Assembly (NCBI GenBank): GCA_964187785.1
Contig: OZ076409.1
Location: 11,782,001-11,846,000, forward strand
Direction: 5' to 3'
Length of the DNA stretch: 64,000 bases
DNA from: Amphiscolops sp. MND2022
Taxonomy: Eukaryota
Shown piece by piece: positions 28,018 through 57,034 of the stretch. A program made the translations under genes and the position numbers. Positions within the stretch are counted from its first letter, which is position 1. Every line of letters starts with the position of its first letter. The notes under the pieces are model-generated. The model searched no databases. It saw only the letters and a list, made by a program, of their open reading frames with translations, and was not told where the DNA came from.

Positions 28018-28217
28018 NNNNNNNNNNNNNNNNNNNNNNNNNNNNNNNNNNNNNNNNNNNNNNNNNNNNNNNNNNNNNNNNNNNNNNNNNNNNNNNNNNN
28101 NNNNNNNNNNNNNNNNNNNNNNNNNNNNNNNNNNNNNNNNNNNNNNNNNNNNNNNNNNNNNNNNNNNNNNNNNNNNNNNNNNNNNNNNNNNNNNNNNNNN
28201 NNNNNNNNNNNNNNNNN
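28018..28217. other. Assembly gap (200 N)
   Basis: Run of exactly 200 N. Confidence 1.
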
Positions 28218-30652: not shown

Positions 30653-31617
30653 TTAGGATATTTCTAGCACGGTGGTATCGATAGTTGAGAATTGCGAAGT
30701 AGCCCCTGAAGTGGTAATGGTTTCGGAAGGGGCATTACTACTGTCCACTTCTACTTGTATGATACAGGTAGAGCAGCTATTGTTAATGGAGGCATCGATT
30801 CCGCTTCCATCAGCATTGAGCGAACCCGTATTCCCATCTATTTTTTCACTAGAGTGTAAATCTTTCGAAATAATGACATCAGTTGGAACCGCTGATTGTT
30901 GTTCTGCCAGAGCACTGGCACTTCTTCTCTCGTAAGCGGCAGCTCCAATGCTTCTCAACGTCGAGCTCTGTTCCAATGCAGTTTGTAGCGACTGAAGAAG
31001 GAAGCCATTGACTAGAATTTGAGGTGAAACAAGAATGGAGACTTTTTCGGTGCCATTGGTGAGAATGAACTCGGCTTCAACGACAGCGTCTGAAGACTGG
31101 TCTGTGATTCCTGGAATTGTGATCGCTGAGTCATAGTTTGAAAGAGCGTTTGGGTCTCCGCCAACTACAGAAGCACAAACATGATCAGATGTACAAGTCA
31201 ACACAATCGTAGGTACGGGTCCATTGCCAATTGTTGATGCTGCTGGAATAACTGCCTGAGGGTCCGATTCTAAGGTCCGGGGTTCGTTGCTAACCAAGGT
31301 CTCTTCACTGTTTGTTCCTATTAGAGATTGGTTGAAACAGGAGCTCAGCTCTTCCATCATGTTCTCGATTTCAACCTGGTCTAATTTATGCGTTGCACGG
31401 AGATGCTGTCTCAGAGCCGCTTTACTGGCCAGTCTGCGATTGCATAGAGAACACAGCACTGAGTTAGCAGAGAGGTCCGCAATGGTATCTGCAGCGCTGC
31501 CCGGGACATCGTTCAGCGACATAACGGATTCCACGTGAGTTCGGGTCACGTGATCTTTAAGCTGCTGCTTCAATCTGAACTGTTGTCCGCACTGCGTGCA
31601 AATATAGGGTCTTTCAC
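30653..31617 (-). CDS. CTCF: CTCF last exon: ZF10, ZF11 and a long Ser/Thr-rich C-terminus
   Basis: ORF 30653-31624; phase 1 acceptor gives HTG-ERPY; stop at 30653. Confidence 0.9.
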
Positions 31618-34600
31618 CTAGCAAAAAGAAATATAGAAAACTTCGGTGTCATTGCGCGGGAGACTGTTTTCACCAGAGTTTTGACACTGCTAATCAGCGA
31701 TTTAGTGAATTGAGGCGATTATATTAGAGATTCAAATCAGCTGTAACTAATAGATTTTCCAAATTCGAAACTTTCTCGGAAAATACAAGGAGTTTCAAAA
31801 TGAATTTCAAAAAAATGCCAACTCTTCATCCGTAAAACTCACACACTAAAATTCCTTTCTTGCAAAAATTGAATTGAGTTATCAGCTGGGGTGTGGGAGT
31901 TTCAGACCGTGGACCGAAACCCGTAGTGCCAAACCGTAACCCGTAGTTGTGAAAAATACGAACCGTGCACCTTTCTGAGAGATCCGAGCGAATTGTTTAT
32001 TACATTTAACAGCAGTGTTTCTAAGAACAAGCCGGGAACGGCCCAAGTCGGCGCCATATCTAAGGCTCAAAAATAGCAAAAGGACTTCAAAGTGTTAAAG
32101 TATTCTCTTCTAAAGCACCCCAAAAACCCAAAAGTTGGACCGGATTGGCGCGCCAGGTGAAAGCTTTGACATTTTTCATCCCTTCTGTGGCAAATCATCA
32201 AAAAATTGAAGGGTGACCCTTTAATAAAAAAATTGAAGTCTCACAATACCGAAAAAAAACTGAGAGGGGGACCTTTTGGTATTTTTCAACATCCATTCTG
32301 CCGCAAAACTCCAGACAAAATGAAGGCAGAACCTTTACGGAAAATTGTTTTGTCTAAAAGAAGTCGCACTATGTCGAAATAATGAAAAAAATTTTACCGA
32401 AAGTTGCATAGTGCCGACAAATGTAAAAGGGGGGACCCCTTGGGATTTTTTGAACGTCCATTCGGTTGCAAAATATCAAAAAATGAAGGGAGGACCCTTT
32501 GGAGACATTAAAAAAGTTTGCGAAAAAAAGTCACAAAGCCGAAATTACACGCACAAAAAATTTGCTCAAGGGTCAGACTCGAACCCACGTCCTTCTGCTT
32601 GGCAGACATCAAAACTATCCTAATTAACCTCTATGCTAAGTGGCAGTAGAAGTTACAAGTGTGGCAGTTAGTGGACGCAGAGGGCGTTCCCTTATTGCCA
32701 TTTTGGGGCAAGGAAGATGAGTGCTTTTGATGAAAAAAAATTTCTGAAGCAAACCTGTTTTTCTGGAACCGTAAACCGTAGATGATAACCCGTAAACCGT
32801 AATTTCAATTCAACCCGCACGGTTCCACACCCCAGGTTATCAGTTATACTCAAAACATTCTTGAATTCAAACAATTTATAGTGGGGAAAAGTTTTTCAGC
32901 AAAACAGCGATTTTGAAATTAATGGTTTAGAGATTAGAAGAAAAATGAGCGATGTCAAAAACTGGTTTTTACAGAGCTACTAGTGTAATCTTTAGACTGC
33001 GCTACGAGATCAGTGGATTGTTCTTCAACCCATACTCCCAAAATATGTAAGCCCTACCTGTATGAGTCATGCGATGAGCTTTAAGGTGTCGTTGCTGTTG
33101 GCACCTGTAATCACACAGATCACATTTCCACACTTTTTCTCCCCGGTGTTTGCGCAGGTGTTCCTTCAGATTGTGTCTGTCTGGGAAAGACACGTTGCAA
33201 TATCTGCACTTCTGGGGTCTCTGACTCGTGTGCATCTTCAACATGTGTTGCTTCAAGTCACTGCGTCGCCCACACGTTGTATCGCAATATTCACACTGAT
33301 ACCTGTGGGAACACGGAGAGAAACAAGTCAACCCTAATTGATCTGCTGGGCCTTTTATTTCCAAATTTTCGAAAGTTCCAATGGTCAATATCTCCTTAAC
33401 TACACATACCAAAGAAATAAACTACAGGCGTGTTTGAAAAGTCCGATACTGGACTCTCATTTTAATTGGATGAGCCCCTGTCACCGCTCGCCGCATCCAT
33501 CAGAATTTTAGTTTCTTTGTGGTATTGCGGAATGGTAAAGGGTTTTCGCCGTAGTTCAAAGACTTTTGAAAACATCGAATTTTGCCAGAAGAAAACTTCA
33601 GAAAAGTATTAACATTTTTTTGCAAGAAAAATCCATTTTTCTCAGCTTCGGAGAATATTTCACTTTCCCTAATGATTGTGCCGTTCAAACCAAACGGAAT
33701 TAAACAGGGTGGCCACGGTGTCAGGGAGAGCAAAAGTGACTGGTCCTTGTCGGGTCGGTCACTTTTGGTCAGGGTTTCACCTAATTTCGTTTTGCTTTTT
33801 TCCGTGTTACGTATTTCAGATGCTATGAGTGGTTGAAAACGCGACAAAATGGACACTTGCAAGTACAATTCCGCTTGGTTGGAAGACGACGGATTCAAGG
33901 AATGGGTGCAGCGGTCGATCGTGTATCAAAAGCTGCAGTCTTGGCAACATGGGTTCCGGGTCCCTCCAGTTGCACCGAAAGAAACTTTACGCATGCGAAG
34001 CTGGTACAGTTGAAGATCCAAACATCTACCGGGGAAGAACATGCAGGCGAACATAGAATCAACTGACGTGCCAACAACAAGCAAGACTGTTATGATTATG
34101 TCCGCTTGTTTTCCCTGGCGGCTGTGGAGTCAAATAAATATGTCATTCCGAGCTGCTGATGTAGCTGGTGGTGTATTCAAGGTGGTGTATTCAATCCCAA
34201 ATAGCAAAATTGCGAAAGGATACTCATGAGGAAAAACGGAAGCAATGAATTTATTGAAGATTGGGCTCAGCGGATATTTTAACGATCAATTGTTGAAATC
34301 CGCCCGTATGACATCTTCGTACGTGATCGAATTCGACGAATCAATGAACCCACAAACCAAAACATGTCAGATGAATTTTCACGTTCGTTTCTGGTACGAT
34401 GGCCAAGTTGGTACTTTTTACTACGGATCGACTTCACTCGAGCCTGCTAGAGCAGATATTTTGAACGAATTGCGCAAATTCTTCGAGGTAATTATCCGTC
34501 TTTAACTTACCTCGCTTTTAACTTGACATGATAAATTTTTTGTTCAGCTCATGACGAACAAGTTGGTACAAATTGGAATGGACGGGCCCAACGTTATTTG

Positions 34601-37600
34601 GTCATTCATGAAGAGCTTAGATCTGAATTACGGGTTAACTCGACAGCACCATTACCAATTGACATCGGTTGGTGGTTCAAGGTGTCGATATGAAAAAGAT
34701 ATAAAAGACAAACAGTCGTCCGATAAGGAAGCCAAAAAGCGCAAAATACAAAAGCGTATTAATGATACAGCAGTAAAAATTCGACGTTCTTGGGCAAGAA
34801 GATGCTGATCTACTACAAATGGCTGACAATAAGGCGACGAATGCCGAGCGCAGAACTGGCCTAAAACTCATGGCTGAGTCCAACTCATTTCACATTTTGC
34901 CAAGAAAAAAGGTGAAGAGGAACGGCAATTGTTGAACTCTATAATGTTACGGCTTTGAAAGTCGCCCGAATGCTGAGTTTCTGTTAATACAATTATTCAT
35001 GAAATATAATCGTTTTCTGGTATGACTTCGTTTTCTTTCGTCCACTGGAGCATCTCTAAAAATATTTAGTGCAAAATCTGCGTTTTTCAGTTACATGGTC
35101 AGGGAGAGCACTTGTGTAATGTCAGGGAGAAAAAATTATTGCGCGTGGCCACCCTGAACAAATTGTTAAATTAAAAATGTACTAACTAGGGATGTACCGG
35201 AATTCCGGCCGGATTTCAAAAAAGTTCCGGTTCCGGCCGGAATCATAATTGGTTCCGGCCGGAACAAAATTCTCTTAAAAACATCATTGTTTCCAAATTG
35301 TTTCATAAATTGATACAATTGACTAAAACAATTTCAGATTATGGTGAAGAAATAAAAGTTTTTCGCCAGTTTCAGGAAGAAGTCTGCTTCTTTTTTCTTC
35401 ATATATGTTTCCGAATTCGCAGAACAGCCTTTGTGAATAAACAGATGACAGAGGTGATGTCAGAAATTTCTTCGCAACTTTTTTCAGAGAACGTAAATGT
35501 AGGATAGCACAATCAAAGTTCCGGTCCGGCCGGAACTGGAAATCGAGTTCCGGTTCCGGCCGGAACTCAAAAACGCATTCCGGTACATCCCTAGTACTAA
35601 CGAATATGGGCTACTGGCAAAACGAATCAGAATTTGAAAAACAGTAAGGTTCTTCAAAATACCGCTAGGTTAAGAGTTAAACAACTAAAAATTGAATTGA
35701 GTATAGCATATCTTCGATATATAAGTCGAAATTATTTTCCAGTAGGGGATGTCGAAAAATCATGACGACAAGTACTGGTTTTCATTTGCAACTTGTGAAC
35801 TGAGTTTGTTTCACTGACCCATTCTTTCGTGACAACCTCCCTTTATAGTGGTATAAAATCAAGCTTTTCTGATCTTGAAATTGACAATCGGCCACTGATT
35901 AGAACCGCGAATGAATGAAATTTTGGCCAACTTTCTTAAAATTTGATTGATTGAGAGCAACATAGCTGACACAAATAAAACAATGCACCAATTGATGCGC
36001 TTTTGCCTTAAATGGCCCAAGGTTCGAAACCCGGGTGAGTTGATTTCATGATCAAACTATTTTGAAAGATTTTCAGACCGTGGATATTCATGACAGTAAA
36101 ATAATACATTACTGCGTCTTGCTATTGATTTTCAGTTGATTTCAGCGCTTTGAATTAATCTGATGCAGAAATTAGGTATATAAAACCGGCTTTGAATCTA
36201 ATGACAAGCCTTGTAATGCAAAAAAGTTGTCTTAGCCTAAACCTACATTTCTCACAAGTTTAACCTTTTCATATATAGCCACATTGAATTTTTCACTGAC
36301 CTCGGTTTGTCCCCAGTATGACCCAGCAGGTGTTGTCTCATGGATCCCGCTTGAGTGAACCTCGCTTTACAAACTGGACACTCGTAAGGCTTCTCACCAG
36401 TGTGTGTCTTCAAATGACGCTTCAATTTGAAGTTATCTGCACAGCAGTAACTGCACAGATGACACCGAAAAGGACGATCACCTAAAAAACAAACCACAAT
36501 TCGAAAGTTATACTATAATTTAGGCGAGGATATTTTTGTGCCAACTGCAACAGTCCATTTTTTGGGAAACAAACATTTTAACATCGAAAAAACGAGGTCA
36601 AGGTCATTTATTCATGAATAAAACACAAAAAAAACAATTAAAAAGCACTTTTTCCTGTTTTTTTAGACACTTTACAGTTATTTATGGTCTAGTTTCTGAC
36701 TGTTCAATTTGTTTGGTAGTTTCCACCTTTTCCAGATCGAAATGCATCGTGTGAAAGATGATATCTGCAAAAAAGCAATGTGGCGAATGACTTCCATGCT
36801 TTATAATCATGTTACACTTTTGTAGAAGAAAATTTGGCAATAAATGAAAAGGCGTCGGGCATAACACACTGTTTTCCATGGTAGCTTTCCCAAGCGAAAA
36901 AAATAAACTACAAAAATAAAAATTTCAAAAAAAACTTGTTTAAAACACTTTTCGTGAAAAAACATATAAAAATAACAACTCTGTAAAAAAGATGTTTGCC
37001 AACAAAGATTGTTAATTATAGTTTTTTGACGAAAAATGTTTTACACAGGTTTTAAACGACATATAGTGTTTTTTGTACTTTATTGTTTTTTTTCCGTTTG
37101 GGAAAAACTACCGTGGAATTCATGAATGAAACACCTTAACTGTGATATCATGTGGATATCATGACCTTCAAAACTATGAACCTAGACAGAGAGCATATTA
37201 TTGTTGTCAAACATAAAACTCTAATTACTGTCAATTTGAGTTTACTACATATAGTGTTGTACAATAGAGTATTGACCATTGAACATGAGATTGATACTAT
37301 AGATTAGTTGCTAAAGAAGATACGAATTTATCGTCTTAGATAAAGAACCTTTTTATCGTGATAGACCGAGGTTACAACATGGCGCAGTAGCAAGATTTAC
37401 TTTTATCCGTAAATCCAATTTTAACCGACCAAATACCAATGACGACAACCAAGAGTAATATATTGCTACCATACCTTGAAGACACCGGACTTGATGGGAA
37501 AAAATTATACACCCCCAAAGAATGGACCGAACGATTACGGCATTACATAAAACGAATCCATGATATCGATATAAAACCGGCTTTATCCGGGGAAACAATG

Positions 37601-40600
37601 CCAACAAGTAACGAATGGACAACAAAAGAACCGGAAATAAGACAAGATTTCATCTGGGGAGCAGGACCATCGGCAATAGAGACGATCACCAAAGGAGAAT
37701 TCAACACAGATCCCGATACCATCAATACAGAAAGACTCATCCAACTATTCAAAGACTATTACATGCCAAAACGAAACACCTACCACAGCCGAGGAGATTT
37801 CTTCTGGGCGAAACAAGAAGACAACGAAACCCCGGAAGAACACTGGCGAAAATTAGTATCCCTCGAAAAGAACTGCGAATTCAAAGATATCAAACAAGAA
37901 GACCTACTAATATCAAAATTTATCACTAGTATTACCGATAAAAAACTACGGGAAAAACTCATCCGCGAAAAAACACTGAATCTGAAAACTACCATGGATC
38001 TGGTAACCCAAGATAGTTATGAAAAGAGACATAAGCAATCAACAATACCACCAGCACTGGCGAAAGAAAAAGAAATTAAAGAAGAACCCATACAGAAGAT
38101 ACAACCACGAAACTACCGGAAAAATACCGAAACAACCGCAAAAAACAACAACTGCGGTTTCTGCGGACAGCAAAACTGGTCACCATCACACAAATGCCCG
38201 GCAAAAACGGCAGAATGTAATAATTGCCACAAAATGGGACACTTCGCAAGAGTTTGCCGCAGCAAAACCAATAAGAACACGAGAAAGCAAAAAATCAACT
38301 ACCTGGAAGAAACATACACCGAAGAAGAAGAAAGTGAACCAGAAGAAATACAACAAATCACGCAAATCAATAGAGTACTACCGGATGAAAACGATAACTA
38401 CGGGATCAAACTAAAAATTAACGGCAAATACCAAAATTTCACAATTGACACCGGCTCTCCAGTTACAATAATGCCAAACAACCCAGAACTCTACAACCAA
38501 AGAGATATAAAACCCCTGAAAGAAAGATATCAAGACGTAAACAAAAACGAAATCCAATTCCTCGGGAAAATATGGGCCGATATCGAACACAACGGAAAGA
38601 CAACAAAATTACCAATCCTAATTACAAAAAGAAACGATATCACTCCATTATTAGGCGTGAACTGGTTGAAACAATTACCAATCACCATCAACAAAATTCA
38701 ATTGGACGAACCAACCAACCAATCAGAAACCATCTACGCGAAATTCAACAAACTATTCGAAACAAACCATACAATTAAAAATATAGAAGTGAAAATTCAA
38801 ATAAAGCCAGGATGCTACCCCATCCAGCAGAAAGCCAGACCAATACCGTACCATTTACAAAAAGACGTAAAAAACGAACTGGACCGATTAATAAAATCCG
38901 GACATCTCGAACGATTAGAAACAATCGAAGAAGATTGTTTTGTATCACCCGTTGTAATTACGGTGAAGAAAGACAAGACGGTAAAAATCGCGCTAGACGC
39001 CCGAAAACTCAATGACAGCTGCGTAAAGAAAAGGCCACACATGCCAAATATGGAAGAACTATTAAATCAAATATCAGCCGAATTATCCAAAAACGACCGC
39101 GACCCAATTTGGATATCCGTAGTAGACCTCGACTACGCATACGGACAAATGAAACTGGCCCCCGAAACAAGCAAACACTGCAACTTTGCAATGACAGGAG
39201 AGAAAATAAATGGATATTACCGATTCTTAAAAGGATTCTACGGCCCCGCCGACATACCAACGATTTTCCAAGAAAAAATAGACAGAACCCTGGGTCACCA
39301 AACACCAGTTTGGCTAGATGACATTATAATTGTCACACGTGGAACCAAAGAAGAACATACCCGAAAACTATATTCGGTACTGACAAAACTGGAAAATGAA
39401 GGCTACAAAGCAAGCAAAAAGAAGTCAAAATTCTATCAAAAAGAAACAATATGGCTCGGACATACGATATCACAAGACGGAATCAGGCCAAACAAAGAAA
39501 AGACAGATGCGATAAATAAACTAGAACCACCAACAAACGCCAAAGCACTAAAATCTTTCCTCGGAGCTATACAGTACTTTGCGAAATTCATACCGAATTT
39601 ATCCGAGAAAACAGACAACATGAGACAACTACTCAAAAAAGGGACGAAATGGGAATGGACAACCGATCGAAATTCGGACTTCAACAAAATAAAACAAGAA
39701 CTAACATCATTACCCTGTTTGGCACACTACAACGGCAACAAAGAAAACATCGTCACAACCGACGCATGCAAAACTGGTTTGGGAATAGCACTCTGGCAAA
39801 AACAAGGCAACGGAGAACTAAAACCGATAGCATTTGCCAGCCGATACCTAAACGATGCCGAAAAAAAATATTCTATCGGAGAATTAGAACTATTAGCCGT
39901 CGTATGGGGCTTGGAAAGATTTAGATTCCATTTATATGGCAAACAAGTCCAATTATTCTCGGACCATCAAGCACTAGAACCCCTCCTGAAGAGAAACAAG
40001 ACAAATAAACAATATAGTGCGCGACTAACACGATGGCTAGACAGATTGAACCACTTCGACATCTGCTTAAAACACACTGCCGGCAAAGAAATCAAATTCA
40101 CGGATTTCATCAGCCGAAATCCCACCGAAAATCCAGAACCGGAAGAAAATTACGAAGAAGAATTTGTTATTAACGCCATCGCGCAACTAGCAACGGTAAA
40201 CGCCCGAATAGGACGGATTTTCGACCAATCAGAAGACGCGACCACGGCAGCCAAAGCAAACATGCGTGATACGCGCTCGCTAATTGACACGCGACGCTAC
40301 CAAACAAACAAAAGCCATATTGATTCTAATTACCGCATACAACAGCATCCATCCAATACTGACTGTATAAAAATGAATAACAATGAAAACAATACACGCT
40401 TCTTCCGCACAGACGGACAATTACGACACCATTGGGGTGCAGATGACGATATCATGGCCATTATCAATGCAAGAGATAAATCACCCGAAACTTCGGAACT
40501 CGTGAGAAGAAGAGTACAATTGGCGAGACCGGGTGTAATGAGACCACATTTCAACAAGAATTTGGGCCGAGAAATTTACATACCGAGAAGACCGGAAGAA

Positions 40601-43600
40601 GATGAAAGAAGAGAAATAAAGCGAATTGACATTCAACTGAGACAAAAGATCAGAGAGCAACATATCGGCGGAGGATATTTTCAAAACTTTGGGGACGACA
40701 TTCCCCAGACCCAAAACACCGAACAACAACAAACCGAGAGAAATGAAACCAACCGAGACACAGAATCCACCGTCTCAAATAACTCGGAGGAAGCAGTAGC
40801 CACCCACGAACCCGGAACTTACCCAGCAATACCAGTCCAAGAATACAGAGACGGGCCAATCGAAGAAATTGCCGTACACTACGTGAGAATCAACCGCGTA
40901 GTTGAAGAAAAACCGAAGCGTAACAGACAACAAGAAGATAACGTCAGATCGGCAGAACTAGATTTCATGCTAGACTTGGAAACGATAATCAAGGAGACGG
41001 CCGCTGACCCTGATCTCATCGAACTAAACTGCTGCATCGAGGACAACAAATTGGATCAAATTCCGCAGAACTACAAAACCGTAGCCAAGAAACTGACATA
41101 CCGTTGGGGTATTATATTGGTCGACGACCGCATCGTAATTCCAAAATCACTACGCTACGCAGCACTCAATGCATTACATTTTGGACATCCCGGGATAAAC
41201 AAAATGTACAGCGACGCAGCAATATTCTGGTGGCCGAACATGCGGGAAGATATTGAAAAGAAATCAAAAACCTGCTCAGCCTGCCTCAACGCTGGTAAGA
41301 ATCTAAAATTCCAAATACCCCAAACCGAAAAATCAAAAATCGAACCGACAAAAACACCTGGTGAAGAAATACAAATTGATTTTACGGGAAATCTCAACAA
41401 TAAAAAACTGCAAAGCAATCCGTTCACACTAATTGCGGTGGATAAAAATAGCCGATGGCCCGTAGCAAAAATATGCAAAAATACGAACCATGAAACCGTC
41501 ATTTCATTTCTGGATGAATACATAAATGTATACGGAGTACCGAAACAAATAAAGTCGGACAAAGGCGGCGCCTTTATCTCCAAAGAATACATAGAATATT
41601 GCAAGACGCATAATATCAACCGCATATACGGTACGGCAAACCTACATACTGGCACCGGATTGGTCGAGCGTACAATCCAATCGCTGAAGAACCTAACTCT
41701 GGCAAATCTAGAAGACAACCAAAACCTTCGTGAAAGCGTAAATAGAGCACTATACGTCCTAAGATTTACAATACATTCAGAAATAAAGAAAACTCCGTTT
41801 GAATTACATTTCGGACGGACACCAAGAACCAAACTGTCTAACCTAAAAAATTCTATTTCAGTGGATTCCAAAGATCTCTCGGTGTATATCACCAGAAATT
41901 CAACCGGACAAATCACGGATCACCTGGTAATGTCAAAGAAAAAGATAGCCGAACCAAGATACAAGCGAGGAATGACATTCTCCCAAACAAAAAAAACCGA
42001 CCAGTGCGGTAAGTAAATTTGAATATCCTTTCAAATTTTACGAAAAAAACTACAAAAAAGGATCCATGGAAAGTAAATTCAAAAATAAAATACAAACCGC
42101 TGTATCTGGAACAAGACACACCGTAACAACGGATAAAAATAAAGTTATCCACAGGAAATTAATATCCAACCCGCTACCATTTCAGCAAACAACAACACCG
42201 GCAAAGAAGATCAACACCCGCCAAAACACCGCAGACCAACCCACCTGCTCCAAAACACTGGACAATACAACCACCAGCGGAGCACCCTGCATCTACAGCA
42301 GGAAAGAAACACCGAAGAACACCGCAAACTACGAAAGAAGCGAGGACTGGTCGAAAAGAAAGGAAATACCCAGGAACAACAAGGGACAATTTACTTCACC
42401 AAACAAAAACACAGAAAACCTAAACCTGAGCATCATATCTGACGATGACGACTTCGAATGTTACAATAAAGCGGAAGGAAAACCGATACAAGTCAACATC
42501 GAAGATGAACTTCAGCTCCACCCGAAGGAAACTAACCTGACACCGGAACAAGGTAGCTATAAAAGAAAAAATAGAACAGAAAAACCGATAGAACCGGTCA
42601 GAAGATCCAATAGACTACCTTTTGCAAAACAAACCGAAAAATTAGGCGGGATACCGTACCACATTAGTAACAATAAGAAAAAATTAACTAACCACGGTAA
42701 TTTATTACAGGAAACAACAGCGGAAACAGCGGAGAGAAATGAGACGAAGAATGACCGTCCAATGCGACAAAACAATGAAGAAATCCGTACCATACGGCCA
42801 CTACAACAAATCCCCATCGGACAACCCCGAAGAGGGGGGAATGTGATATCATGTGGATATCATGACCTTCAAAACTATGAACCTAGACAGAGAGCATATT
42901 ATTGTTGTCAAACATAAAACTCTAATTACTGTCAATTTGAGTTTACTACATATAGTGTTGTACAATAGAGTATTGACCATTGAACATGAGATTGATACTA
43001 TAGATTAGTTGCTAAAGAAGATACGAATTTATCGTCTTAGATAAAGAACCTTTTTATCGTGATAGACCGAGATTACAACATTAACAACAACCTTGATGAT
43101 GCTAACCCGTATGCGATCGCATGTGTCTTTTCAACTTGCTGACTTCAACACTTGCGTAATCACACTCCGGACACTGGTGAGGCTTATAAGACGTGTGTCG
43201 GTATCTTTGATGACGTGTCAACTCCCCTTTGGTTACAAACGCTTGGGAGCACTCCTCGCATTCATAAGGCTTGCGCCCTTTGTGAGTGTTCATATGATTG
43301 TTAAGCATAGATTGTAGTTTGAAGGCTTTGTCGCATTGGGGACACTGGAAAACAAAACAAATCAATATAGCCCAATTGGATATTCACCAGCATGCGAACT
43401 TTAACAACCATAGTCGCACGTGCGGTGAAGGTAAATTGAAAAACAAATTACGTACTTATTGTCATTTTTGCACTAAGTTTGACTCTGTCAGATCTGTTAT
43501 ACGATTTTGATGGCATTGTACAAATAGGACCCTAATATGGCGTAGAATGATTGTAAAAATTTCGTTCGAATCGTATGCACAGTTTTTGAGAAAATCAGAA

Positions 43601-44385
43601 AAAGTCCAAAAACGGCTGTTTTTGGCCACATTTTTGGGCTAATTTTGGCTGTTTCTCAGATCCCAACTATACGATTTTGATGTCATTGCGCACGTAGGAG
43701 CACCTTTGTGTGTAGAATGACTGCTGAATTTTATAAAAATGAAGTTTTTGAGAAATTTGAAATTTTCATTGAAAGGTCGGGAGAAAAAAGGTACGAGTGC
43801 ATAATTTTTTCCGACTCCTAAAATGAGTTCTTCATCTAACCTTGAAAGGTCGTTCCTGATAATGACTCTTCCAATGTTTTTCCAATGTCTCCTGCGACAA
43901 GGCGGCGTAGTTACCACAGATGCCACAGTGATATACTCTCGATTGGTTTTCAACCACATGGTCACTGTCAAACTTGATGTGTTTGTAGATATCGAATTTG
44001 GGTCTGGTAGAATCAACGTGATTGGTCAAAGGATCGTCTTCGTTTTCCTCCGCCCTCAAGCTCTGTTCACAACATGTCTCGCCGGCACTATTCGAAACGG
44101 CACTTTTTTTCTTTTCCGAATTCTCGTCTGATATCTCATCCAATTTTCTTTTCGGACTAGGCGTAAGGGTGGCTTCTTGGCTGGCGAGAGCACATGTGTT
44201 CTTTTCATGGAAAGCATCTTCGGTTTTTGGGAAGTGAGATGGACTAATACCCTCCAAGCTATCTTCCCACAAATCGGTGCCCTCGTAGGAAGAAATTATG
44301 CCTTCAGCGGTGAAAGAATAGAACGGTTTCAAATCTCCACGATTGACTGCACTTCTTGAATTGCGCAGAATGTTAGGTCTTTTGC
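30653..44385 (-). CDS. CTCF: CCCTC-binding factor (CTCF) orthologue, 11-zinc-finger and C-terminal exons
   Basis: Exons 44385-43841, 43344-43107, 36481-36301, 33302-33058, 31617-30653 splice in phase. Fingers follow CTCF order with diagnostic strings: [99 protein letters not shown]. Confidence 0.92.
31886..32835. mobile_element. hAT-type MITE nested in MITE 31674-32964 and itself containing a Helentron-like copy (32026-~32680)
   Basis: TIR CTGGGGTGTGG/CCACACCCCAG; 8-bp TSD GTTATCAG. Confidence 0.8.
33058..33302 (-). CDS. CTCF: CTCF exon: ZF7-ZF9
   Basis: ORF 33002-33412 trimmed to splice sites. Confidence 0.93.
33705..35156 (+). mobile_element. Internally deleted DNA transposon with hAT-like transposase remnants
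   Basis: 13-bp TIR CAGGGTGGCCACG; fragments [36 protein letters not shown]. Confidence 0.8.
35187..35593. mobile_element. hAT-type MITE
   Basis: TIR TAGGGATGTACCGGAAT; CCGGCCGGAA subterminal repeats; perfect 8-bp TSD GTACTAAC. Confidence 0.88.
36301..36481 (-). CDS. CTCF: CTCF exon: ZF5-ZF6
   Basis: ORF 36252-36497 trimmed to splice sites. Confidence 0.93.
37141..37379 (+). repeat. 5' LTR
   Basis: Direct repeat of 42842-43080. Confidence 0.97.
37439..42016 (+). CDS. Gag-pol polyprotein (Zn knuckles, protease IDTGS, RT WLDD, RNase H, integrase HHCC/DDE)
   Basis: 1525-aa ORF with recognisable motifs. Confidence 0.95.
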   Translation: MTTTKSNILLPYLEDTGLDGKKLYTPKEWTERLRHYIKRIHDIDIKPALSGETMPTSNEWTTKEPEIRQDFIWGAGPSAIETITKGEFNTDPDTINTERLIQLFKDYYMPKRNTYHSRGDFFWAKQEDNETPEEHWRKLVSLEKNCEFKDIKQEDLLISKFITSITDKKLREKLIREKTLNLKTTMDLVTQDSYEKRHKQSTIPPALAKEKEIKEEPIQKIQPRNYRKNTETTAKNNNCGFCGQQNWSPSHKCPAKTAECNNCHKMGHFARVCRSKTNKNTRKQKINYLEETYTEEEESEPEEIQQITQINRVLPDENDNYGIKLKINGKYQNFTIDTGSPVTIMPNNPELYNQRDIKPLKERYQDVNKNEIQFLGKIWADIEHNGKTTKLPILITKRNDITPLLGVNWLKQLPITINKIQLDEPTNQSETIYAKFNKLFETNHTIKNIEVKIQIKPGCYPIQQKARPIPYHLQKDVKNELDRLIKSGHLERLETIEEDCFVSPVVITVKKDKTVKIALDARKLNDSCVKKRPHMPNMEELLNQISAELSKNDRDPIWISVVDLDYAYGQMKLAPETSKHCNFAMTGEKINGYYRFLKGFYGPADIPTIFQEKIDRTLGHQTPVWLDDIIIVTRGTKEEHTRKLYSVLTKLENEGYKASKKKSKFYQKETIWLGHTISQDGIRPNKEKTDAINKLEPPTNAKALKSFLGAIQYFAKFIPNLSEKTDNMRQLLKKGTKWEWTTDRNSDFNKIKQELTSLPCLAHYNGNKENIVTTDACKTGLGIALWQKQGNGELKPIAFASRYLNDAEKKYSIGELELLAVVWGLERFRFHLYGKQVQLFSDHQALEPLLKRNKTNKQYSARLTRWLDRLNHFDICLKHTAGKEIKFTDFISRNPTENPEPEENYEEEFVINAIAQLATVNARIGRIFDQSEDATTAAKANMRDTRSLIDTRRYQTNKSHIDSNYRIQQHPSNTDCIKMNNNENNTRFFRTDGQLRHHWGADDDIMAIINARDKSPETSELVRRRVQLARPGVMRPHFNKNLGREIYIPRRPEEDERREIKRIDIQLRQKIREQHIGGGYFQNFGDDIPQTQNTEQQQTERNETNRDTESTVSNNSEEAVATHEPGTYPAIPVQEYRDGPIEEIAVHYVRINRVVEEKPKRNRQQEDNVRSAELDFMLDLETIIKETAADPDLIELNCCIEDNKLDQIPQNYKTVAKKLTYRWGIILVDDRIVIPKSLRYAALNALHFGHPGINKMYSDAAIFWWPNMREDIEKKSKTCSACLNAGKNLKFQIPQTEKSKIEPTKTPGEEIQIDFTGNLNNKKLQSNPFTLIAVDKNSRWPVAKICKNTNHETVISFLDEYINVYGVPKQIKSDKGGAFISKEYIEYCKTHNINRIYGTANLHTGTGLVERTIQSLKNLTLANLEDNQNLRESVNRALYVLRFTIHSEIKKTPFELHFGRTPRTKLSNLKNSISVDSKDLSVYITRNSTGQITDHLVMSKKKIAEPRYKRGMTFSQTKKTDQCGK
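42066..42917 (+). CDS. C-terminal continuation of pol in the +1 frame; runs into the 3' LTR
   Basis: Frame is open back to the A8 run at 41989-41996; removing one A fuses it to the polyprotein. Confidence 0.65.
   Translation: MESKFKNKIQTAVSGTRHTVTTDKNKVIHRKLISNPLPFQQTTTPAKKINTRQNTADQPTCSKTLDNTTTSGAPCIYSRKETPKNTANYERSEDWSKRKEIPRNNKGQFTSPNKNTENLNLSIISDDDDFECYNKAEGKPIQVNIEDELQLHPKETNLTPEQGSYKRKNRTEKPIEPVRRSNRLPFAKQTEKLGGIPYHISNNKKKLTNHGNLLQETTAETAERNETKNDRPMRQNNEEIRTIRPLQQIPIGQPRRGGNVISCGYHDLQNYEPRQRAYYCCQT
42842..43080 (+). repeat. 3' LTR
   Basis: Direct repeat of 37141-37379. Confidence 0.97.
43107..43344 (-). CDS. CTCF: CTCF exon: ZF2-ZF4
   Basis: ORF 43102-43365; [12 protein letters not shown] matches recalled CTCF ZF4. 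Confidence 0.95.
43841..44385 (-). CDS. CTCF: CTCF exon: acidic linker plus atypical ZF1 (CGIC-x13-HWKSH)
   Basis: ORF 43832-44332 extended to the acceptor at 44386; ends ERPFK|GTTAG. Confidence 0.85.
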
Positions 44386-46859
44386 CTGAATGAAAAGAAT
44401 TCCTTAAAAGGGAGAAAAAAACAAACTTTTCAAAGAATATAGCTTTTTCTTCGTTTCGAAAACAACTGTCTCATGTTACAGTCACGGTATCTAATCAAAA
44501 AAGACTAAACAATAGGGCTACTAGAGAATAATTGAGATTTAATTGCTGCAATACAACCGTTATTCGAAATACGGCGATCCCGAAACGCAGATCGAACTAT
44601 GTATACAAACCGCATACATTAGTTATTCCCAAAGGGATATTCTTTGATCTCGTCTAGATTCTCAAATTTTGCGTTTTCCACACTTAGCAAATGTTTCAGT
44701 CCTGATTTTTTGCTGAGATCATGTAGCGATGCAAAGGTTTGAGCCATGCGTAGGCGGAAAGCACTTGACGACAACAACAATAGAAAGGACTGCCTTTTTT
44801 CCTTTCTAATGCGCCTCACGATGAAATGTGCCTCAACAACACACCAGTGTGGCGTGCAGCTGACACTAATGCAACGAAAAATTTGAATACAGCGTCCGGA
44901 GAACCAGGAACCCTGTTATACCTAGAAACTGTTTTGAGGTTAACCAGGAATATGGAAAGTGCTTCAAGGTGATTTGTTTGTGCTCGACTTTGACAATAGC
45001 ACGTGAACACGACCAGCTGTAACTTTGAGACTGTTTGCGATCAGGTGAAAACTTTTGTTTCATCCAATTACAAAAACTTATCAATTTGTATGACTGGCCA
45101 CATTGTTATTGATGTTACATTTATTTCTACATGAAAACTAAATTGCTTGCGCAACTGAGAAAAAAACTGAAAAAGTCTGACTCAAAAAAGACAGAATGAC
45201 AAAAATACCAAGACTCAGCAAGCAATTGCTACACTTAATTTATTCTTGTAGCCCTATTCTCTTTTCTTTCACCTAATCTTCAGGACGTATGTCAAACGAC
45301 TTTTTAAAAATACTTCGAAAGAATTATTCGTTACTTCCTATTGGGTTATCAGCAAATGGAATTTAACTATAAAGAATTGATTTGAAAATTACCATGCCTC
45401 AATTTCGACCAAAAATTTCCTTGTAAATACAATTGTAAGTTCGAGACTGCTTAAAAAGATAGAGATCGAGATTTGCAGACTTCAACCCCAGAACATCTTT
45501 TTTAAAAGTTATTACCTTTCGGAGCGTTTTCTTTGGGTTATCATTTATCAAATCTTTCAAACATTGCTTATCTGGCAGAACTAAAATTTATTTTTATTTC
45601 AGATGAAGCCCTCTTCAAGCAACCCCGTCGTGGGCTCTATTCAAGCTTTTCTGTCGATAAAATTAGTCAAAAATTAAGATGAAATAGCCGCCACAACGAA
45701 AAAAAAATTACGAACAGTTGATTCAATCAACACTGGTCACAGAGGGCTACACAAATTTTACCGTTAAGGTTTCGTTAAAGCGCCTTGTGACATGTGAACT
45801 TCGTCAGAGCGGATGTTAACAGACAATGTAATGTCAAATTGGTCGCTTATTGATTTTTTCACATTGTTTTGATTTCAAAACCAGCCTTGCAGCTGTTCAA
45901 CAACTTTAAAGCGGGCCTTCTAAAAGACCAAAACCTTGAATTCGAAAAAAAACTAAAGCCCAAATCAGAAATCCACTGTTCCGGGACACAATCAAGAAGC
46001 ACCAAAACCAGTATAGAAACAGAAGTTGCACTATGCACCCTTGCAATAGGAAATGACAATTTTTCTTTGGTTTTTCTAGTTAATGTTAAAACTCTTGTCA
46101 TTCTGTGGTCGAATCAAAATTCGCTTTATTCATTTCTTATTCCACAGAATATTGTAGCAATCGATGGATTTCCACATTTTCAAAAAAGGGTTTTCCAAAA
46201 TGTTTAAGGAACATTCAATAATCAATCCTATCAGTTTTGTTTTCAAAATTTCAATGGTTCTAAACGCAGTGTTGCGTTTAAAGATGGTTTATCGGAAAAT
46301 CACTTGATACCTATGTGAAAATCTTAGTTAGAAATTTCAATATAGAACAGTTGCTAAAAATTTCTAATTCCTGCTGTTAACTAGATAAAATGGTTTTTAA
46401 AACTTAAGCAACTGTTCTTCCTTGAAATTAGAGTAAAGATTTTCATTGTATTTTACTTTAGTTATTTCCACTATATTAACTGAACAGCCTATTTACCTGA
46501 ATCATTGATTGTCAACATTACCTCAACACCCAGCCGATTGTGGATTCCTGATACTTTTTTGCTCTAACAATGAGTGGCATAATTTTAAAAAATAGTACAT
46601 TGATTCATTTGTTCTGTTCTAGCATATTTTTAGAAATTACCGCTACTGTTAGAGCATGGAAGAAGATACATGCCAATGCAAACACCTTGGTAATTGAAGC
46701 AGTCTCGAACTTCCAGAACGTGTATAAATTGTTTGAAAGCGTGCTATTTCTAGTGGAAAAACAGCTTACCTAACACAATAAAGAAATATCGGCCGTTCCT
46801 CATTTAAAAAAAAATTAAACCTAAAACATTAGGGAGAATTTCCTTCGAAGAAAATGCGA

Positions 46860-47383
46860 TTTTTAGTCGGCGCTTTTCGAAGAAAAACGCAGACTATAGT
46901 AGTGACTTTTTTAAGACCAACTAACTGAAAGATTTTATAAATTTTATAAGTGAGCACTAACACTGCTGTCTGGCACTAACATTGTCTGGCACTAACACTA
47001 AACCACACTGGCATAGAGGTTACGGCTTTTTGAGGTCTGCCAAGCGGAAGGACATGGGTTCGAGTCCCGCCCTTGACCAAATTTTTTTTGTGTAGATTTT
47101 TTTCGGCTTTGTGAGACTTTTTTTCGCATTTTTTTTAAATGTCTCCGAAGGGTCCACCCTTCATTTTTTTTCCTATTTTGCAAAAGAATGGATGTTGAAA
47201 ACAGCCAAAGGGCCCCTTTTACATTTTTCGGTACAATGCGACTTACCAGAAACTTCAAAAAAATTCAAAAAAAATTGGAAAATTTTTTTGGGTACTGTAG
47301 AGGAGAGTACTTGACAATTTGAAGTCCTTTTGCTATTTTTGAGCCTTAGATAGGGCGCCGACTTGGGCCGTTCCCGGCTTGTT
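46860..47383 (+). mobile_element. Helentron/DINE-like copy (duplicated at 50207-50704)
   Basis: TTTTTAGTCGGCGC...GGCGCCGACTTGGGCCGTTCCCGGCTTGTT termini. Confidence 0.7.
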
Positions 47384-47901
47384 CAACAGTTACAGTGGGT
47401 TTTGTCTCTGAATTAATTTACGTATGGAAAATTATCCTATCTTCTATAGAAGTTTCCAAAATTATTATATCATGCGACTTTTTTATTTCAGTTACGTACA
47501 TCTTCAAACAAGCTTGTGGCACACTTTTACTATACAAGTAATTTTTTTCTACAGTATTATACAAGAGAATTGACATTAAACTCAATCTTCTTTTCATGCA
47601 GCTTTTGTAAGACTAAATTATTCCGAACGTTAATCTGTGAACGAAAAACGATCGGAAGGATAAAAAGCATTCCCAGTGCCGATGGTAAATGTCGAAGGTT
47701 TCTACTTAGTTGTCTCTAGACTGACTGTGTCTCATACTCTTTTTCGAGATTCAATAAAGTCCTCTAATTGTAACATCTCAAATTTACAATAAAAAGCTAT
47801 TGTATTATTATCGGTAAAGTTTTGGGACTAGAGAAAATTGAGTTTGGTGCACAACAAAACTGTTTCAACACCAACAACTACTGAAATATACATCTGCCAG
47901 C

Positions 47902-47991
47902 CTAACAAAACTGTTTTCCTATGTAAGGTTATTATATATAAATTCTAAAATTTATATATAATAACCTTACATAGGAAAACAGTTTTGTTAG
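47902..47991. repeat. Perfect palindrome, 43-bp arms with 4-nt loop (copy at 51223-51312)
   Basis: Arms are exact reverse complements around CTAA. Confidence 0.95.
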
Positions 47992-48798
47992 TCTTTCAAT
48001 ACATGGACCGATGCGCAGCAGCTTCACCGTTTGAAGCAGTTAAATAAAGTTTCAACTCAATTTACAATTTGAGTAAGTTCCATGGGCAGTTTTGTGAAAC
48101 GAAATATAAAATCACCCACTGACATTTGTAAGTTTTAATCAAATTCTCAAACTAATCGACAACACAAAATAAACACAAACGCCCACCGTCCGTAGGCATG
48201 CCTTTCGACGACGTATGCCAAAAACCGCATACCACGCAGTCATTTCCGCTAGATTCTCAAATTTTGCGATGTTTTTCCCACACTTAGCAAATGTTTAAGT
48301 CCTGATTTTTACTGAGATCATGTAGCGATGCGAAGGTTTGAGTCATGCGTAGGCGGGTGTCTGGATTTAAACGTGGAAGTTCACCGTAGAAAAATATGGA
48401 GCTATCAAAAAACTTACGGTAAAAGCCGTTCAAAGTTACAGCAAAAAGTCAAACAACATAAACGCTTAGCTGAGAAACTTGCAATAGTGCCTGCATATGT
48501 GAAATCTGGTGGCGCCATTTTTTTCCTGGAAAGCTAAACATGACATCCGAATTTCTCGAGTTTCCACGAGTTCTGAGCAATATCAAAACCTTCAAGGTAC
48601 GTAGTCATGGTAATGATTTATGAATTTTCCAATTGTCGAAAATTCTCCAAAAAGTTTCAGGTGTTTTGGTACGACAGTCTTTCTTCTACAACAGCACCTA
48701 ACACCGAATCAACTTTCAGGTTAACGTTCGAGCGGAACAACCATAAAGGCACAAAATAGCTGTTTTCGTTCACGGGAAGCCCATATATTAAAACTTAC

Positions 48799-49521
48799 TA
48801 ATATTAAAGTGTGAAAACCACTGAACATCAGAGTCCTCGTCAAGAGAGCTTTTATTCTCGTTCGCTGTTAGACAAGAACCAGTGAGGCCAGACAAAATCG
48901 AGGAACCAAATTGACTAGATTTGGAGCATGTTGCAACCTGCGCAGATCCAGGCTCCGGTTTTAGCGAAACTTCATCGGGAAAATCGTAAACAGAGTCATC
49001 CGAACACCTGTTTCTTTCTTTGAATTTGTCAATTTTAGTATGACTGAATTTATTCGCTGTACTATTCTCATCCTGAAACCACAACGAGGTTGCAAAAATT
49101 TACATATAGTACAGAAATATGAGATTTGATGAGAATCAATACTAACCGATAAAGCTTTAATAGAGAAGGTAGAGCTGGTATTAGAGTCACCACTGACAGG
49201 AATAAGTTGAACTTTGTGACCCAAATGATCCAATAGTACAACCTTTTCACCAGTGATTGTTCTGAAGGTTCCATCACTTTCCCGGATTAACTGAACTTGG
49301 TTTCTGCTTCCATCGAACTGTTGTTTACTATTATTGGTCTCGGAATAGAATGTATCAACTGAGCTGGTGTTGGCAATAAAATCGTTTTCATCTTGGCTTT
49401 CCACAATTTTGATATCTTTCTGTAGTCGTTCATACACTTTTTCGAAACTTGTTTCAGCGAAAGAAAAATTGACTTCGGGAAACCCCTTAGGCGAAATTGG
49501 ACCTTTCGACAGAGAATACAT
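48799..49521 (-). CDS. CTCF: Probable CTCF N-terminal exons, proximal copy (49521-49147 and 49072-48799), containing SVYDF
   Basis: Overlapping ORFs 48961-49521 and 48788-49084 join through a 74-nt GTTAGT..TTTCAG intron; the phase 1 GTAAGT donor is compatible with acceptor 44385. Further small intervening exons are possible. Confidence 0.6.
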
Positions 49522-52119
49522 GCTTTGAGCTGGATATAGGAAGCCTTATATTTCCGCAAATAGCTCTGCACAAAAAGCCTCACATTTGTCTGAAAAAAAA
49601 CGAACGTGAAGTGGAGGCGCATCTGCATTACAATATTTTCCGCAAAATTTTACGGACACCTTTAGAAAGCAATAAAGCAATCGATAGTCCGAAACATCAA
49701 CCAACTGTTGAGAAAGGATATCGACTCATCAACTAGAATTTATCATGGATCTACGTCATTTACCTTACAATCAGAACTGGATCGTATTTTACTTTAGTTA
49801 TTTCCACTATATTAACTGAACAGCCTATTTACCTGAATCATTGATTGTCAACATTACCTCAACACCCAGCCGATTGTGGATTCCTGATACTTTTTTGCTC
49901 TAACAATGAGTGGCATAATTTTAAAAAATAGTACATTGATTCATTTGTTCCGTTCTAGCATATTTTTAGAAATTACCGCATATTTTAGAAATTTCTGTTA
50001 GAGCATGGAAGATACATGCCAATGCAAACACCTTGGTAATTGAAGCAGTCTCGAACTTCCAGAACGTGTATAAATTGTTTGAAAGCGTGCTATTTCTAGT
50101 GGAAAAACAGCTTATCTAACACGTTAAAGAAATATCGGACGTTCCCCATTTTAAAAAAAATTTAAACCTAAAACATTAGGGAGAATTTCCTTCGAAGAAA
50201 ATGCGATTTTTAGTCGGCGCTTTTCGAAGAAAAACGCAGACTATAGTAGTGACTTTTTTCAAGACCAACTAACTGACAGATTTTATAAATTTTATAAGTG
50301 AGCACTAACACTGCTGTCTGGCACTAACACTAAACCACACTGGCATAGAGGTTACGGCTTTTTGAGGTCTGCCAAGCGGAAGGACATGGGTTCGAGTCCC
50401 GCCCTTGACCAATTTTTTTTTGTGTAGATTTCTTTCGGCTTTGTGAGACTTTTTTTCGCAATTTTTTTAATGTCTCCGAAGGGTCCACCCTTCATTTTTT
50501 TCCTATTTTGCAAAAGAATGGATGTTGAAAACAGCCAAAGGGCCCCTTTTACATTTTTCGGTACAACGCGACTTACCAGAAACTTCAAAAAAAATTTGGA
50601 AAATTTTTTTGGGTACTGTAGAGGAGAGTACTTGACAATTTGAAGTCCTTTTGCTATTTTTGAGCCTTAGATAGGGCGCCGACTTGGGCCGTTCCCGGCT
50701 TGTTCAACAGTTACAGTGGGTTTTGTCTCTGAATTAATTTACGTATGGAAAATTATCCTATCTTCTATAGAAGTTTCCAAAATTATTATATCATGCGACT
50801 TTTTTATTTCAGTTACGTACATCTTCAAACAAGCTTGTGGCACACTTTTACTATACAAGTAATTTTTTTCTACAGTATTATACAAGAGAATTGACATTAA
50901 ACTCAATCTTCTTTTCATGCAGCTTTTGTAAGACTAAATTATTCCGAACGTTAATCTGTGAACGAAAAACGATCGGAAGGATAAAAAGCATTCCCAGTGC
51001 CGATGGTAAATGTCGAAGGTTTCTACTTAGTTGTCTCTAGACTGACTGTGTCTCATACTCTTTTTCGAGATTCAATAAAGTCCTCTAATTGTAACATCTC
51101 AAATTTACAATAAAAAGCTATTGTATTATTATCGGTAAAGTTTTGGGACTAGAGAAAATTGAGTTTGGTGCACAACAAAACTGTTTCAACACCAACAACT
51201 ACTGAAATATACATCTGCCAGCCTAACAAAACTGTTTTCCTATGTAAGGTTATTATATATAAATTCTAAAATTTATATATAATAACCTTACATAGGAAAA
51301 CAGTTTTGTTAGTCTTTCAATACATGGACCGATGCGCAGCAGCTTCACCGTTTGAAGCAGTTAAATAAAGTTTCAACTCAATTTACAATTTGAGTAAGTT
51401 CCATGGGCAGTTTTGTGAAACGAAATATAAAATCACCCACTGACATTTGTAAGTTTTAATCAAATTCTCAAACTAATCGACAACACAAAATAAACACAAA
51501 CGCCCACCGTCCGTAGGCATGCCTTTCGACGACGTATGCCAAAAACCGCATACCACGCAGTCATTTCCGCTAGATTCTCAAATTTTGCGATGTTTTTCCC
51601 ACACTTAGCAAATGTTTAAGTCCTGATTTTTACTGAGATCATGTAGCGATGCAAAGGTTTGAGTCATGCGTAGGCGGGTGTCTGGATTTAAACGTGGAAG
51701 TTTACCGTAGAAAAATATGGAGATGTCAAAAAAACTTACGGTAAAAGCCGTTCAAATTTACAGCAAAAAGTCAAACAACATAAACGCTTAGCTGAGAAAC
51801 TTGCAATAGTGCTTGCATATGTGAAATCTGGTGGCGCCATTTTTTTCCTGGAAAGCTAAACATGACATCCGAATTTCTCGAGTTTCCACGAGTTCTGAGC
51901 AATATCAAAACCTTCAAGATACGTAGTCATGGTAATGATTTATGAATTTTCCAATTGTCGAAAATTCTCCAAAAAGTTTCAGGTGTTTTGGTACGACAGT
52001 CTTTCTTCTACAACAGCACTTAACACCGAATCAACTTTCAGGTTAACGTTCGAGCGGAACAACCATAAAGGCACAAAATAGCTGTTTCGTTCACGGGAAG
52101 CCCATATATTAGAACTTAC

Positions 52120-52842: not shown

Positions 52843-53080
52843 GCTTTGAGCTGGATATAGGAAGCCTTATTTTTCCGCAAAGAGCACTGCACAAAAAGCC
52901 TCACATTTGTCTGAAAAAAAACGAACATGAACAGGAGGCGCATCTGCATTACAATATTTTCCGCATACTTTTACGGACACCTTTAGAAAGCAATAAAGCA
53001 ATCGATAGTCCCAAACATCAACCAACTGTTTAGAAAAGATATCGACTCATCAACTAGAATTTATCATGGATCTACGTCAT

Positions 53081-56706: not shown

Positions 56707-57034
56707 CTTCGCGATTTCCCTTTCCGCTAGGTCTTTGCTTCTGTTCGATCTCGCTCAGCAAGATGGGAACATAAGCGTCCCCAGGGAGCCGCGGGTCACT
56801 AGAGGAAATAAGGACTGAACCGAGGCACGTTGTATACTTTGCCTCATTCCAACAAAATTAGTCTGTTTGTTTTTCTTTTAAATTGATGATTTCTACAAAG
56901 TGGTATTTTACAAACTGGACCTAATTCAAAATAATACCATAGTTCAGTTTGTAGAAAAAAATTCCACAAACTGGGCCTCACTTTTCTACAAACTGGATTC
57001 TACAAACTGGTTTTCTACAAACTGGTTTAATACC

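Follow-up and report, generated by a model that had tools for sequence, protein, structure and literature searches.

A 64,000-nucleotide stretch of contig OZ076409.1 (assembly GCA_964187785.1, positions 11,782,001 to 11,846,000; the window hereafter) carries on its minus strand a real and intact acoel gene for the zinc-finger protein CTCF. Sequence comparison identifies the gene as the orthologue of CTCF in acoels; its product is probably a sequence-specific, invertebrate-type CTCF that contacts cohesin via a long leash and works as a promoter- or insulator-type factor, not as a polar loop barrier. In a six-frame scan of the window, every zinc-finger frame lay on the minus strand, in the interval from 30.6 to 44.5 kb. 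The splice model was built from the DNA, with junctions located by eye and joined by coordinates, together with a RefSeq protein of the acoel Symsagittifera roscoffensis, XP_063720262.1 (P0295), which can be aligned with the window model from end to end. The gene runs from an ATG at 49521 to a stop at 30653 through seven coding exons (Table 1); its six introns are all GT-AG with compatible phases, and the joined frame encodes 940 amino acids (aa) without a single internal stop, laid out as a 369-aa N-terminus, 11 zinc fingers (ZFs) and a 244-aa tail. Exon 2, bounded by a phase-0 acceptor and a phase-1 GTAAGT donor, aligns with the corresponding segment of the Symsagittifera protein. A first-pass annotation of the same DNA had listed the 11 fingers, the five recognition helices of ZF3-7, a 13-residue ZF1, a C2H2 ZF11, a spacer of ~30 aa between ZF10 and ZF11 and a tail of ~240 aa. 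All of these are present in the sequence, the spacer measuring 27 aa (His to Cys) and the tail 244 aa; exon 2 with its YDF motif, the second copy of exons 1-2 and the retrotransposon in intron 4 had been overlooked. An acceptor-like site 68 nt upstream of the ATG suggests that a noncoding first exon lies further upstream.

For comparison we used the best 120 of 253 database matches to exon 4, 114 of which bear the CTCF ZF4 signature. The set is mostly vertebrate and holds 11 invertebrates (arthropods, one bivalve and one other), with no insect, echinoderm, lancelet, tunicate or nematode, and any acoel feature called unusual below is unusual relative to this set only. In the PDB, exon 4 matched residues 296-374 of human CTCF, with ZFP568 ranking higher by a score summed over many fingers, and the top match of exon 6 was human CTCF 437-518 (E 2.6e-43); a search of longer proteins with exon 6 returned 2 matches among 9 candidates, neither of them CTCF. 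Fingers 2 to 10 each paired best with the same-numbered finger of Limulus CTCF (9/9), and nearly all did so with Peromyscus CTCF (8/9), a finger-by-finger correspondence which argues that the order of the array is not due to chance. ZF1 and ZF11 had no clear best match among the fingers of these two proteins and were numbered by position and by the ZF11 helix of Symsagittifera, which has Asn-Thr-Met in common with vertebrates.

A maximum-likelihood tree was then inferred from ZF2-10 (198 columns) of 16 CTCFs picked from 116 and of 34 other arrays, these being the best nine-finger run of every other fetched protein with at least nine fingers, no cnidarian knowingly among them; the duplicate ZF2-6 of the Symsagittifera model was excluded. 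All 16 CTCFs, the window protein included, separated from the 34 other arrays with full support (100/100, SH-like approximate likelihood ratio test/ultrafast bootstrap), so that the CTCF identity proposed in the first-pass annotation was confirmed by phylogeny. The window array was sister to Symsagittifera (81.8/97), with a short branch of 0.09 substitutions per site to their shared node. Scores against it ranged from 530 to 752 for the 114 other CTCF arrays (at least nine fingers) and did not exceed 397 for non-CTCFs. No closer acoel sequence was present among the best 120 of the 253 matches to exon 4. The acoel CTCFs fell outside vertebrates plus protostomes (91.5/97), a placement that we did not count as evidence on Xenacoelomorpha, given 198 columns and no ambulacrarian, lancelet or tunicate in the tree. 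Affinity to Symsagittifera was also evident for the neighbouring gene, CFAP61, whose best named relative was S. roscoffensis (71% identity over 530 columns; grouped 100/100), with 47-55% identity to eight other named animals. When the ZF1 region was searched against 1.84 billion representatives, 46 matches came back, two of them close (73% and 61%), and the cluster of the 61% match includes XP_063720262.1, which RefSeq calls 'zinc finger protein 184-like'. CFAP61 and CTCF are both closest to S. roscoffensis and identify the host as an acoel; the earlier guess of an acoel-like host was borne out, and the DNA is not from S. roscoffensis itself.

The DNA-reading part of the protein is well preserved. 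At base-reading positions -7, -4 and -1 of ZF3-7, numbered after PMC10484683, 12 of the 15 residues are the same as in Peromyscus CTCF, including all nine in ZF3-5. Among the exceptions, ZF6 has a Ser for the mammalian Thr, and this Ser is also found in the four protostomes compared; the remaining two are Gln at position -1 in ZF6 and in ZF7. Because the human residues at these two -1 positions are reported to be too distant from the DNA for base contact (PMC10484683), the core motif should stay, and ZF3-7 likely read a CTCF-like core motif, in line with the retained specificity that had been proposed for them. Further along the array, both acoels retain the Arg (-5) of ZF9 and the Gln (-5) of ZF10, residues described in the human protein as providing cross-strand specificity for the upstream motif (PMC10484683). 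ZF8 contains 10 Lys/Arg, compared with 8-10 in other CTCFs. Remodelling of ZF9-10 was considered and ruled out by these two retained residues and by the resemblance of ZF10 to its mammalian counterpart (7/19 residues), which is at the level of protostome ZF10 (7-8/19).

On the cohesin side, the YxF motif is known to bind a STAG-RAD21 surface, and its loss abolishes most CTCF loops (PMC7645679; 10.1101/2025.01.26.634934). The YDF of the window protein sits in an acidic context in exon 2, and its surroundings form the top window of the N-terminus when compared with ten distinct CTCF YDF contexts, a score attained in 3 of 1000 shuffles. Symsagittifera has FDF at the aligned position, 210 aa before ZF1. 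The two words share position, acidic flanks and exon in both acoels, within a linker that is itself unalignable. Y[DE]F precedes the fingers in 102 of 114 non-acoel CTCF-like proteins, 100 of them having it 38-53 aa from ZF1 and the two outliers (19 and 168 aa) being ten-finger models; the remaining 12, among them a bivalve and a spider, lack Y[DE]F ahead of the fingers. The motif-finger distance of the acoels is about five times that of the other CTCFs compared. The 16 aa preceding ZF1 have a net charge of -1 in the window protein and in a third acoel-type protein, P0249, and of -2 in Symsagittifera; four vertebrates reach +8 and five protostomes range from 0 to +4. No basic patch is present ahead of ZF1 in the window protein. 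A KTYQR-like word in the N-terminal block was rejected as a PDS5-binding motif, being at chance level (145/300 shuffles) and different in Symsagittifera. The vertebrate loop-anchoring features tested (basic patch, YxF ~42 aa before ZF1, KTYQR, and a C2HC ZF11 after 10-11 aa) were all absent. According to two preprints (10.64898/2026.10.19.759930; 10.64898/2026.10.19.760054), invertebrate CTCFs retain YxF yet fail to restore loops, and one of the two ties loop anchoring to a basic patch gained in chordates.

The finger that truly departs from those of other CTCFs is ZF1. Its second Cys and first His are separated by 13 residues, a distance that is 12 in all 105 eleven-finger non-acoel CTCFs; the 13-residue spacing recurs in P0249, where ZF1 is identical, and in P0295. 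This finger lacks both Arg residues with which human ZF1 reads GAG, and has only 3-5 of 19 residues in common with other CTCFs (8-9/19 for mammal versus protostomes). Compared with Symsagittifera, 14 of 19 non-ligand residues are identical, above the values for ZF3, ZF6 or ZF9. The predicted fold is that of a normal beta-beta-alpha finger (predicted local distance difference test, pLDDT, about 70). A fold search returned nothing at E 0.001 or better, with weak rows for Kaiso and BED fingers, and the Atlas led to generic C2H2 clusters. Since ZF1 is strongly conserved among acoels and has a normal predicted fold, these comparisons indicate that it is altered under selection, not decayed. Human ZF1 is reported to overlap an RNA-binding region (PMC7645679).

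The other end of the array is more ordinary. The 105 eleven-finger non-acoel CTCFs fall into two types: 94 have a C2HC ZF11 and a 10-11 aa spacer, and 11, all of them invertebrate-type, combine a C2H2 ZF11 with a 15-aa spacer and an H-x3-H ZF6. The window protein likewise pairs a C2H2 ZF11 with an H-x3-H ZF6. Between mammals and protostomes, too, no finger is less conserved than ZF11 (2-4/19). A C2H2 ZF11 was rejected as a special feature, occurring in 11 of 11 invertebrate CTCFs fetched, and so was the long tail: tails span 38-328 aa across the set and 70-328 aa in invertebrates. What is acoel-specific in this sample is ZF1 and the 27-29 aa spacer between ZF10 and ZF11, the latter in length only, since the two acoel spacers show no sequence conservation (225/300 shuffles reach the score). 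The earlier description of ZF1 and ZF11 as remodelled thus stands for ZF1, acoel-specific and conserved, and falls for ZF11, whose C2H2 form is the ordinary invertebrate state; the accompanying suggestion of changed peripheral functions keeps its force for ZF1 and the ZF10-11 spacer only and loses it for ZF9-10, ZF11 and the tail.

Outside the fingers, three blocks (N-terminal, pre-ZF1 and tail) are conserved between the two acoels, their scores against Symsagittifera (106, 76 and 168) being reached by none of 300 shuffles; the best scores among 114 other CTCFs were 39, 32 and 44. The segments aa 200-340 and aa 697-740 showed no conservation between the same two proteins (281/300 and 226/300 shuffles reach the score). 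The tail block had no Pfam, PDB-sequence or Atlas match, and AlphaFold2, run on a two-row alignment, gave low-confidence strands followed by helices, with pLDDT <50 over most of the block. CTCF termini have been described as unstructured and unconserved, with the exception of an N-terminal multimerisation module in the fly (PMC7021899). The very end of the protein (30662-30700, minus strand) also resembles that of Symsagittifera (11/22 identical, 12/300 shuffles), a possible short C-terminal motif.

Comparison with known systems places the window protein closest to Symsagittifera XP_063720262.1, which shares the 13-residue ZF1, an F/Y-D-F word at 210-216 aa, the C2H2 ZF11, the three blocks, a long ZF10-11 spacer (29 versus 27 aa) and a similar C-terminal end, and which differs in having FDF for YDF and in not being labelled CTCF. 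The Symsagittifera model contains ZF2-6 twice (aa about 365-685; 139 identical aa, giving 16 fingers), either an assembly artefact or a recent internal duplication. Protostome CTCFs (Limulus, Tachypleus, Caerostris, crustaceans and the bivalve Sinanodonta) have the same 11 fingers in the same order, the H-x3-H ZF6, the C2H2 ZF11, a weak basic patch or none and, in most, YDF; they differ in their 12-residue ZF1, 15-aa spacer, YDF at 38-53 aa and lack of the acoel blocks. With vertebrate CTCF (human; PDB 7W1M, 8SSS, 8SSQ) the window protein shares the nine base-reading residues of ZF3-5 (9/9), the ZF9 Gln/Arg/His, the ZF10 Gln (-5) and a YDF with an acidic flank. Confined to the vertebrate side of this comparison are the C2HC ZF11, the H-x4-H ZF6, the 10-11 aa spacer, the +8 basic patch, KTYQR (jawed forms), a GAG-reading ZF1 and the ZF11 Arg566. 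The functional model that we propose is Drosophila CTCF, known here from papers only, which is reported to keep the cohesin-binding YxF without anchoring loops (10.64898/2026.10.19.760054; PMC10003631); its self-associating folded part is N-terminal (PMC7021899); in acoels, by contrast, the largest of the conserved blocks lies C-terminally.

Following this model, ZF3-7 would bind a CTCF-like core motif, with ZF8 as a spacer and ZF9-10 reading the upstream motif. YxF, within a disordered N-terminus, would bind cohesin at its STAG-RAD21 surface, tethered by a leash of ~215 aa and lacking the basic patch that positions YxF in vertebrates. The protein would then mark promoters or insulator-like sites in loose contact with cohesin, and would not stop loop extrusion efficiently or in an orientation-dependent way. 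The N-terminal helix, the tail block and ZF1 together with the conserved block ahead of it are probably surfaces under selection that are specific to acoels and most likely serve protein partners. Several points weigh against this proposal. Gln at -1 of ZF6 and ZF7 could change the 5' end of the motif. The FDF match of Symsagittifera is weak when taken alone (35/1000 shuffles; 6/300 in the block test), both acoel N-termini contain further F/YxF words, YxF is just three residues long, and the FDF form is weaker, though still active, in human assays. Moreover, a preprint reports that replacing the basic patch alone by the fly version did not severely impair loops in cells, and for this reason the absence of the patch in acoels is not decisive.

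The protein could instead be a true barrier to loop extrusion, if the roles of KTYQR and the basic patch were taken over by YxF on its long leash, the conserved N-terminal helix and the pre-ZF1/ZF1 unit. Such a substitution would fit the retention of YxF in two species and the three strongly conserved acoel-only blocks, and lamprey CTCF, which according to a preprint anchors loops without KTYQR, indicates that other sequences can serve; but none of the invertebrate orthologues in the two cited preprints restored loops, the patch is missing and the KTYQR-like word is a chance-level match that differs in Symsagittifera, and we regard a barrier of this kind as quite unlikely. Alternatively, the protein could be a plain transcription factor whose YDF is a relic or a chance word without cohesin contact. 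A distance of 210-216 aa, outside the 38-53 aa of 100/102 CTCFs, the Tyr-to-Phe change in Symsagittifera and the 12/114 CTCF-like proteins with no Y[DE]F before the fingers could all be explained in that way. Yet position, acidic flanks and exon are the same in two species despite an unalignable linker, and the context match was reached by only 3/1000 shuffles, making a relic or chance word improbable, if less so than the substitute barrier. A bolder extension of the favoured cohesin-contact model deserves mention here: YxF may be under selection on its 210-aa leash, uncoupled from ZF1; ZF1 may no longer read DNA and, with the conserved block ahead of it, serve as a partner or RNA module; and a new folded tail domain may recruit or pair CTCF molecules. 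We hold it as a tentative idea, on balance doubtful. If true, it would represent a third mode of CTCF action, orientation-independent cohesin tethering combined with direct bridging, and the CTCF-cohesin contact would be as old as all bilaterians, serving a job other than stopping loop extrusion.

Two further explanations concern the gene itself. Strong divergence of the termini and ZF1, in a genome represented here by the window, could point to a diverged paralogue, like vertebrate BORIS/CTCFL, with a canonical CTCF elsewhere. We find this very improbable, as no closer acoel sequence appeared among the best 120 of 253 matches, the branch is short (0.09) and YxF is kept, whereas the CTCF-like paralogues that cartilaginous fishes contribute to the set are without it. 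The locus might also be an impaired allele, its splicing disturbed by a fresh long terminal repeat (LTR) element inserted 26 nt away from a splice donor and by the tandem copy of exons 1-2. Both are indeed present, and a transcript that included the two exon copies would stop early; however, splice sites and frame are intact, the element is intronic and antisense, and the duplicate may be an uncollapsed allele, so that impairment is the least credible of all the readings weighed here.

For CTCF, which is called 'bilaterian', a main gene survey (PMC7535936) reports that it included no xenacoelomorph sequences and that its sampling was really nephrozoan; CTCF is reported lost in flatworms and derived nematodes (PMC10003631). 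One October 2026 preprint describes it as an enigma that YxF persists where CTCF loops are lacking. Acoels are not named in the main text of the October 2026 preprints on CTCF evolution (10.64898/2026.10.19.759930, 10.64898/2026.10.19.760054), although the supplementary tree of the former (~1000 metazoan proteomes) may include xenacoelomorphs. No description of an acoel CTCF was found in the literature searched (titles and abstract starts, subscription papers being mostly outside its scope), nor was one reported in passages from PMC8851819, PMC7535936, PMC9680502, PMC13508932, PMC12221973 and 10.1101/041806. The species table of PMC12221973 has Hofstenia and Xenoturbella, and the word CTCF is absent from the six supplements searched. 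CTCF is expected in a bilaterian, and an acoel CTCF alone is no proof of CTCF-based folding in acoels. The value of the finding lies rather in filling the xenacoelomorph gap, in a YxF that is displaced yet conserved, and in ZF1 and tail modules that are under selection. Wherever Xenacoelomorpha is placed, that gap is filled by a clear acoel CTCF with YxF, and the S. roscoffensis RefSeq orthologue is shown to be unrecognised as CTCF. With YxF kept ~170 aa further off and no basic patch, acoels provide a natural experiment on whether the distance to ZF1 is important and on the way in which CTCF and cohesin originally cooperated.

Table 1 Features of the acoel CTCF gene and its surroundings in the window (window positions).
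Feature	Position	Strand	Remarks
Coding exon 1	49147..49521	-	aa 1-125; includes the acoel-conserved block aa 10-51
N-terminal block, aa 10-51	about 49369-49494	-	24/43 identical to Symsagittifera; amphipathic-helix pattern
Coding exon 2	48799..49072	-	aa 126-217; YDF inside; preceded by a 74-nt intron
YDF (YxF), cohesin-binding-type motif, aa 154-156	48980..48988	-	216 aa before first Cys of ZF1
Coding exon 3	43841..44385	-	low-complexity linker, pre-ZF1 block (aa 342-367), ZF1
Pre-ZF1 block, aa 342-367	about 43934-44011	-	occupies the place of the basic patch
ZF1, C-x2-C-x13-H-x3-H	43862..43927	-	atypical spacing; in exon 3
Coding exon 4	43107..43344	-	ZF2-ZF4; 58-66% identity to CTCFs
Coding exon 5	36301..36481	-	ZF5-ZF6
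Coding exon 6	33058..33302	-	ZF7-ZF9
Coding exon 7	30653..31617	-	ZF10, 27-aa spacer, ZF11, 244-aa tail, stop codon
ZF11, C2H2	about 31388-31453	-	exon 7
Tail block, aa 747-850	30926..31237	-	48/107 identical to Symsagittifera
3.3-kb tandem copies	46445-49759 and 49781-53080	.	97.4% identical; exons 1-2 in each
Second exon 1 copy	52468-52842		intact; splice sites intact in both copies
Second exon 2 copy	52120-52393		intact; splice sites intact in both copies
Ty3/gypsy-type LTR retrotransposon	37141..43080	+	CTCF intron 4, antisense to gene, 26 nt from exon 4 donor
CFAP61, multi-exon	about 220-21130	-	runs past left window end
Scaffold gap, 200 N	28018-28217		between CFAP61 and CTCF; adjacency depends on scaffolding

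The 3.3-kb repeat may be a true duplication or an uncollapsed allele. Its exon 1 copies are identical and its exon 2 copies differ by 5 nt, equivalent to 4 aa, one of them adjoining YDF; a transcript through both exon 1-2 copies would meet an early stop in all three frames tried. Each tandem copy also contains a 96-bp near-perfect palindrome (96%; 47899-47994 and 51220-51315). The LTR element in intron 4 is very young: its 239-bp LTRs are identical at 238 of 239 positions and it is flanked by a 5-bp target-site duplication. It has a 1541-codon frame and shows protease, reverse transcriptase, RNase H and integrase, in that order. On the far side of the gene from CFAP61, an inverted duplication (54957-58702) with arms of ~1.7 kb that are 90% identical contains broken reverse-transcriptase-like frames, with partial copies reaching 60.7 kb, and a second decayed element family occupies 60.5-63.5 kb. 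Nested tandem arrays of 14-15 bp units with inverted repeats, belonging to one family and resembling miniature inverted-repeat transposable elements in layout, occur at 22870-25470, 54250-54500 and 56700-56840. Finally, 23 repeat matches connect the two sides of the 200-N gap that separates CFAP61 from CTCF.

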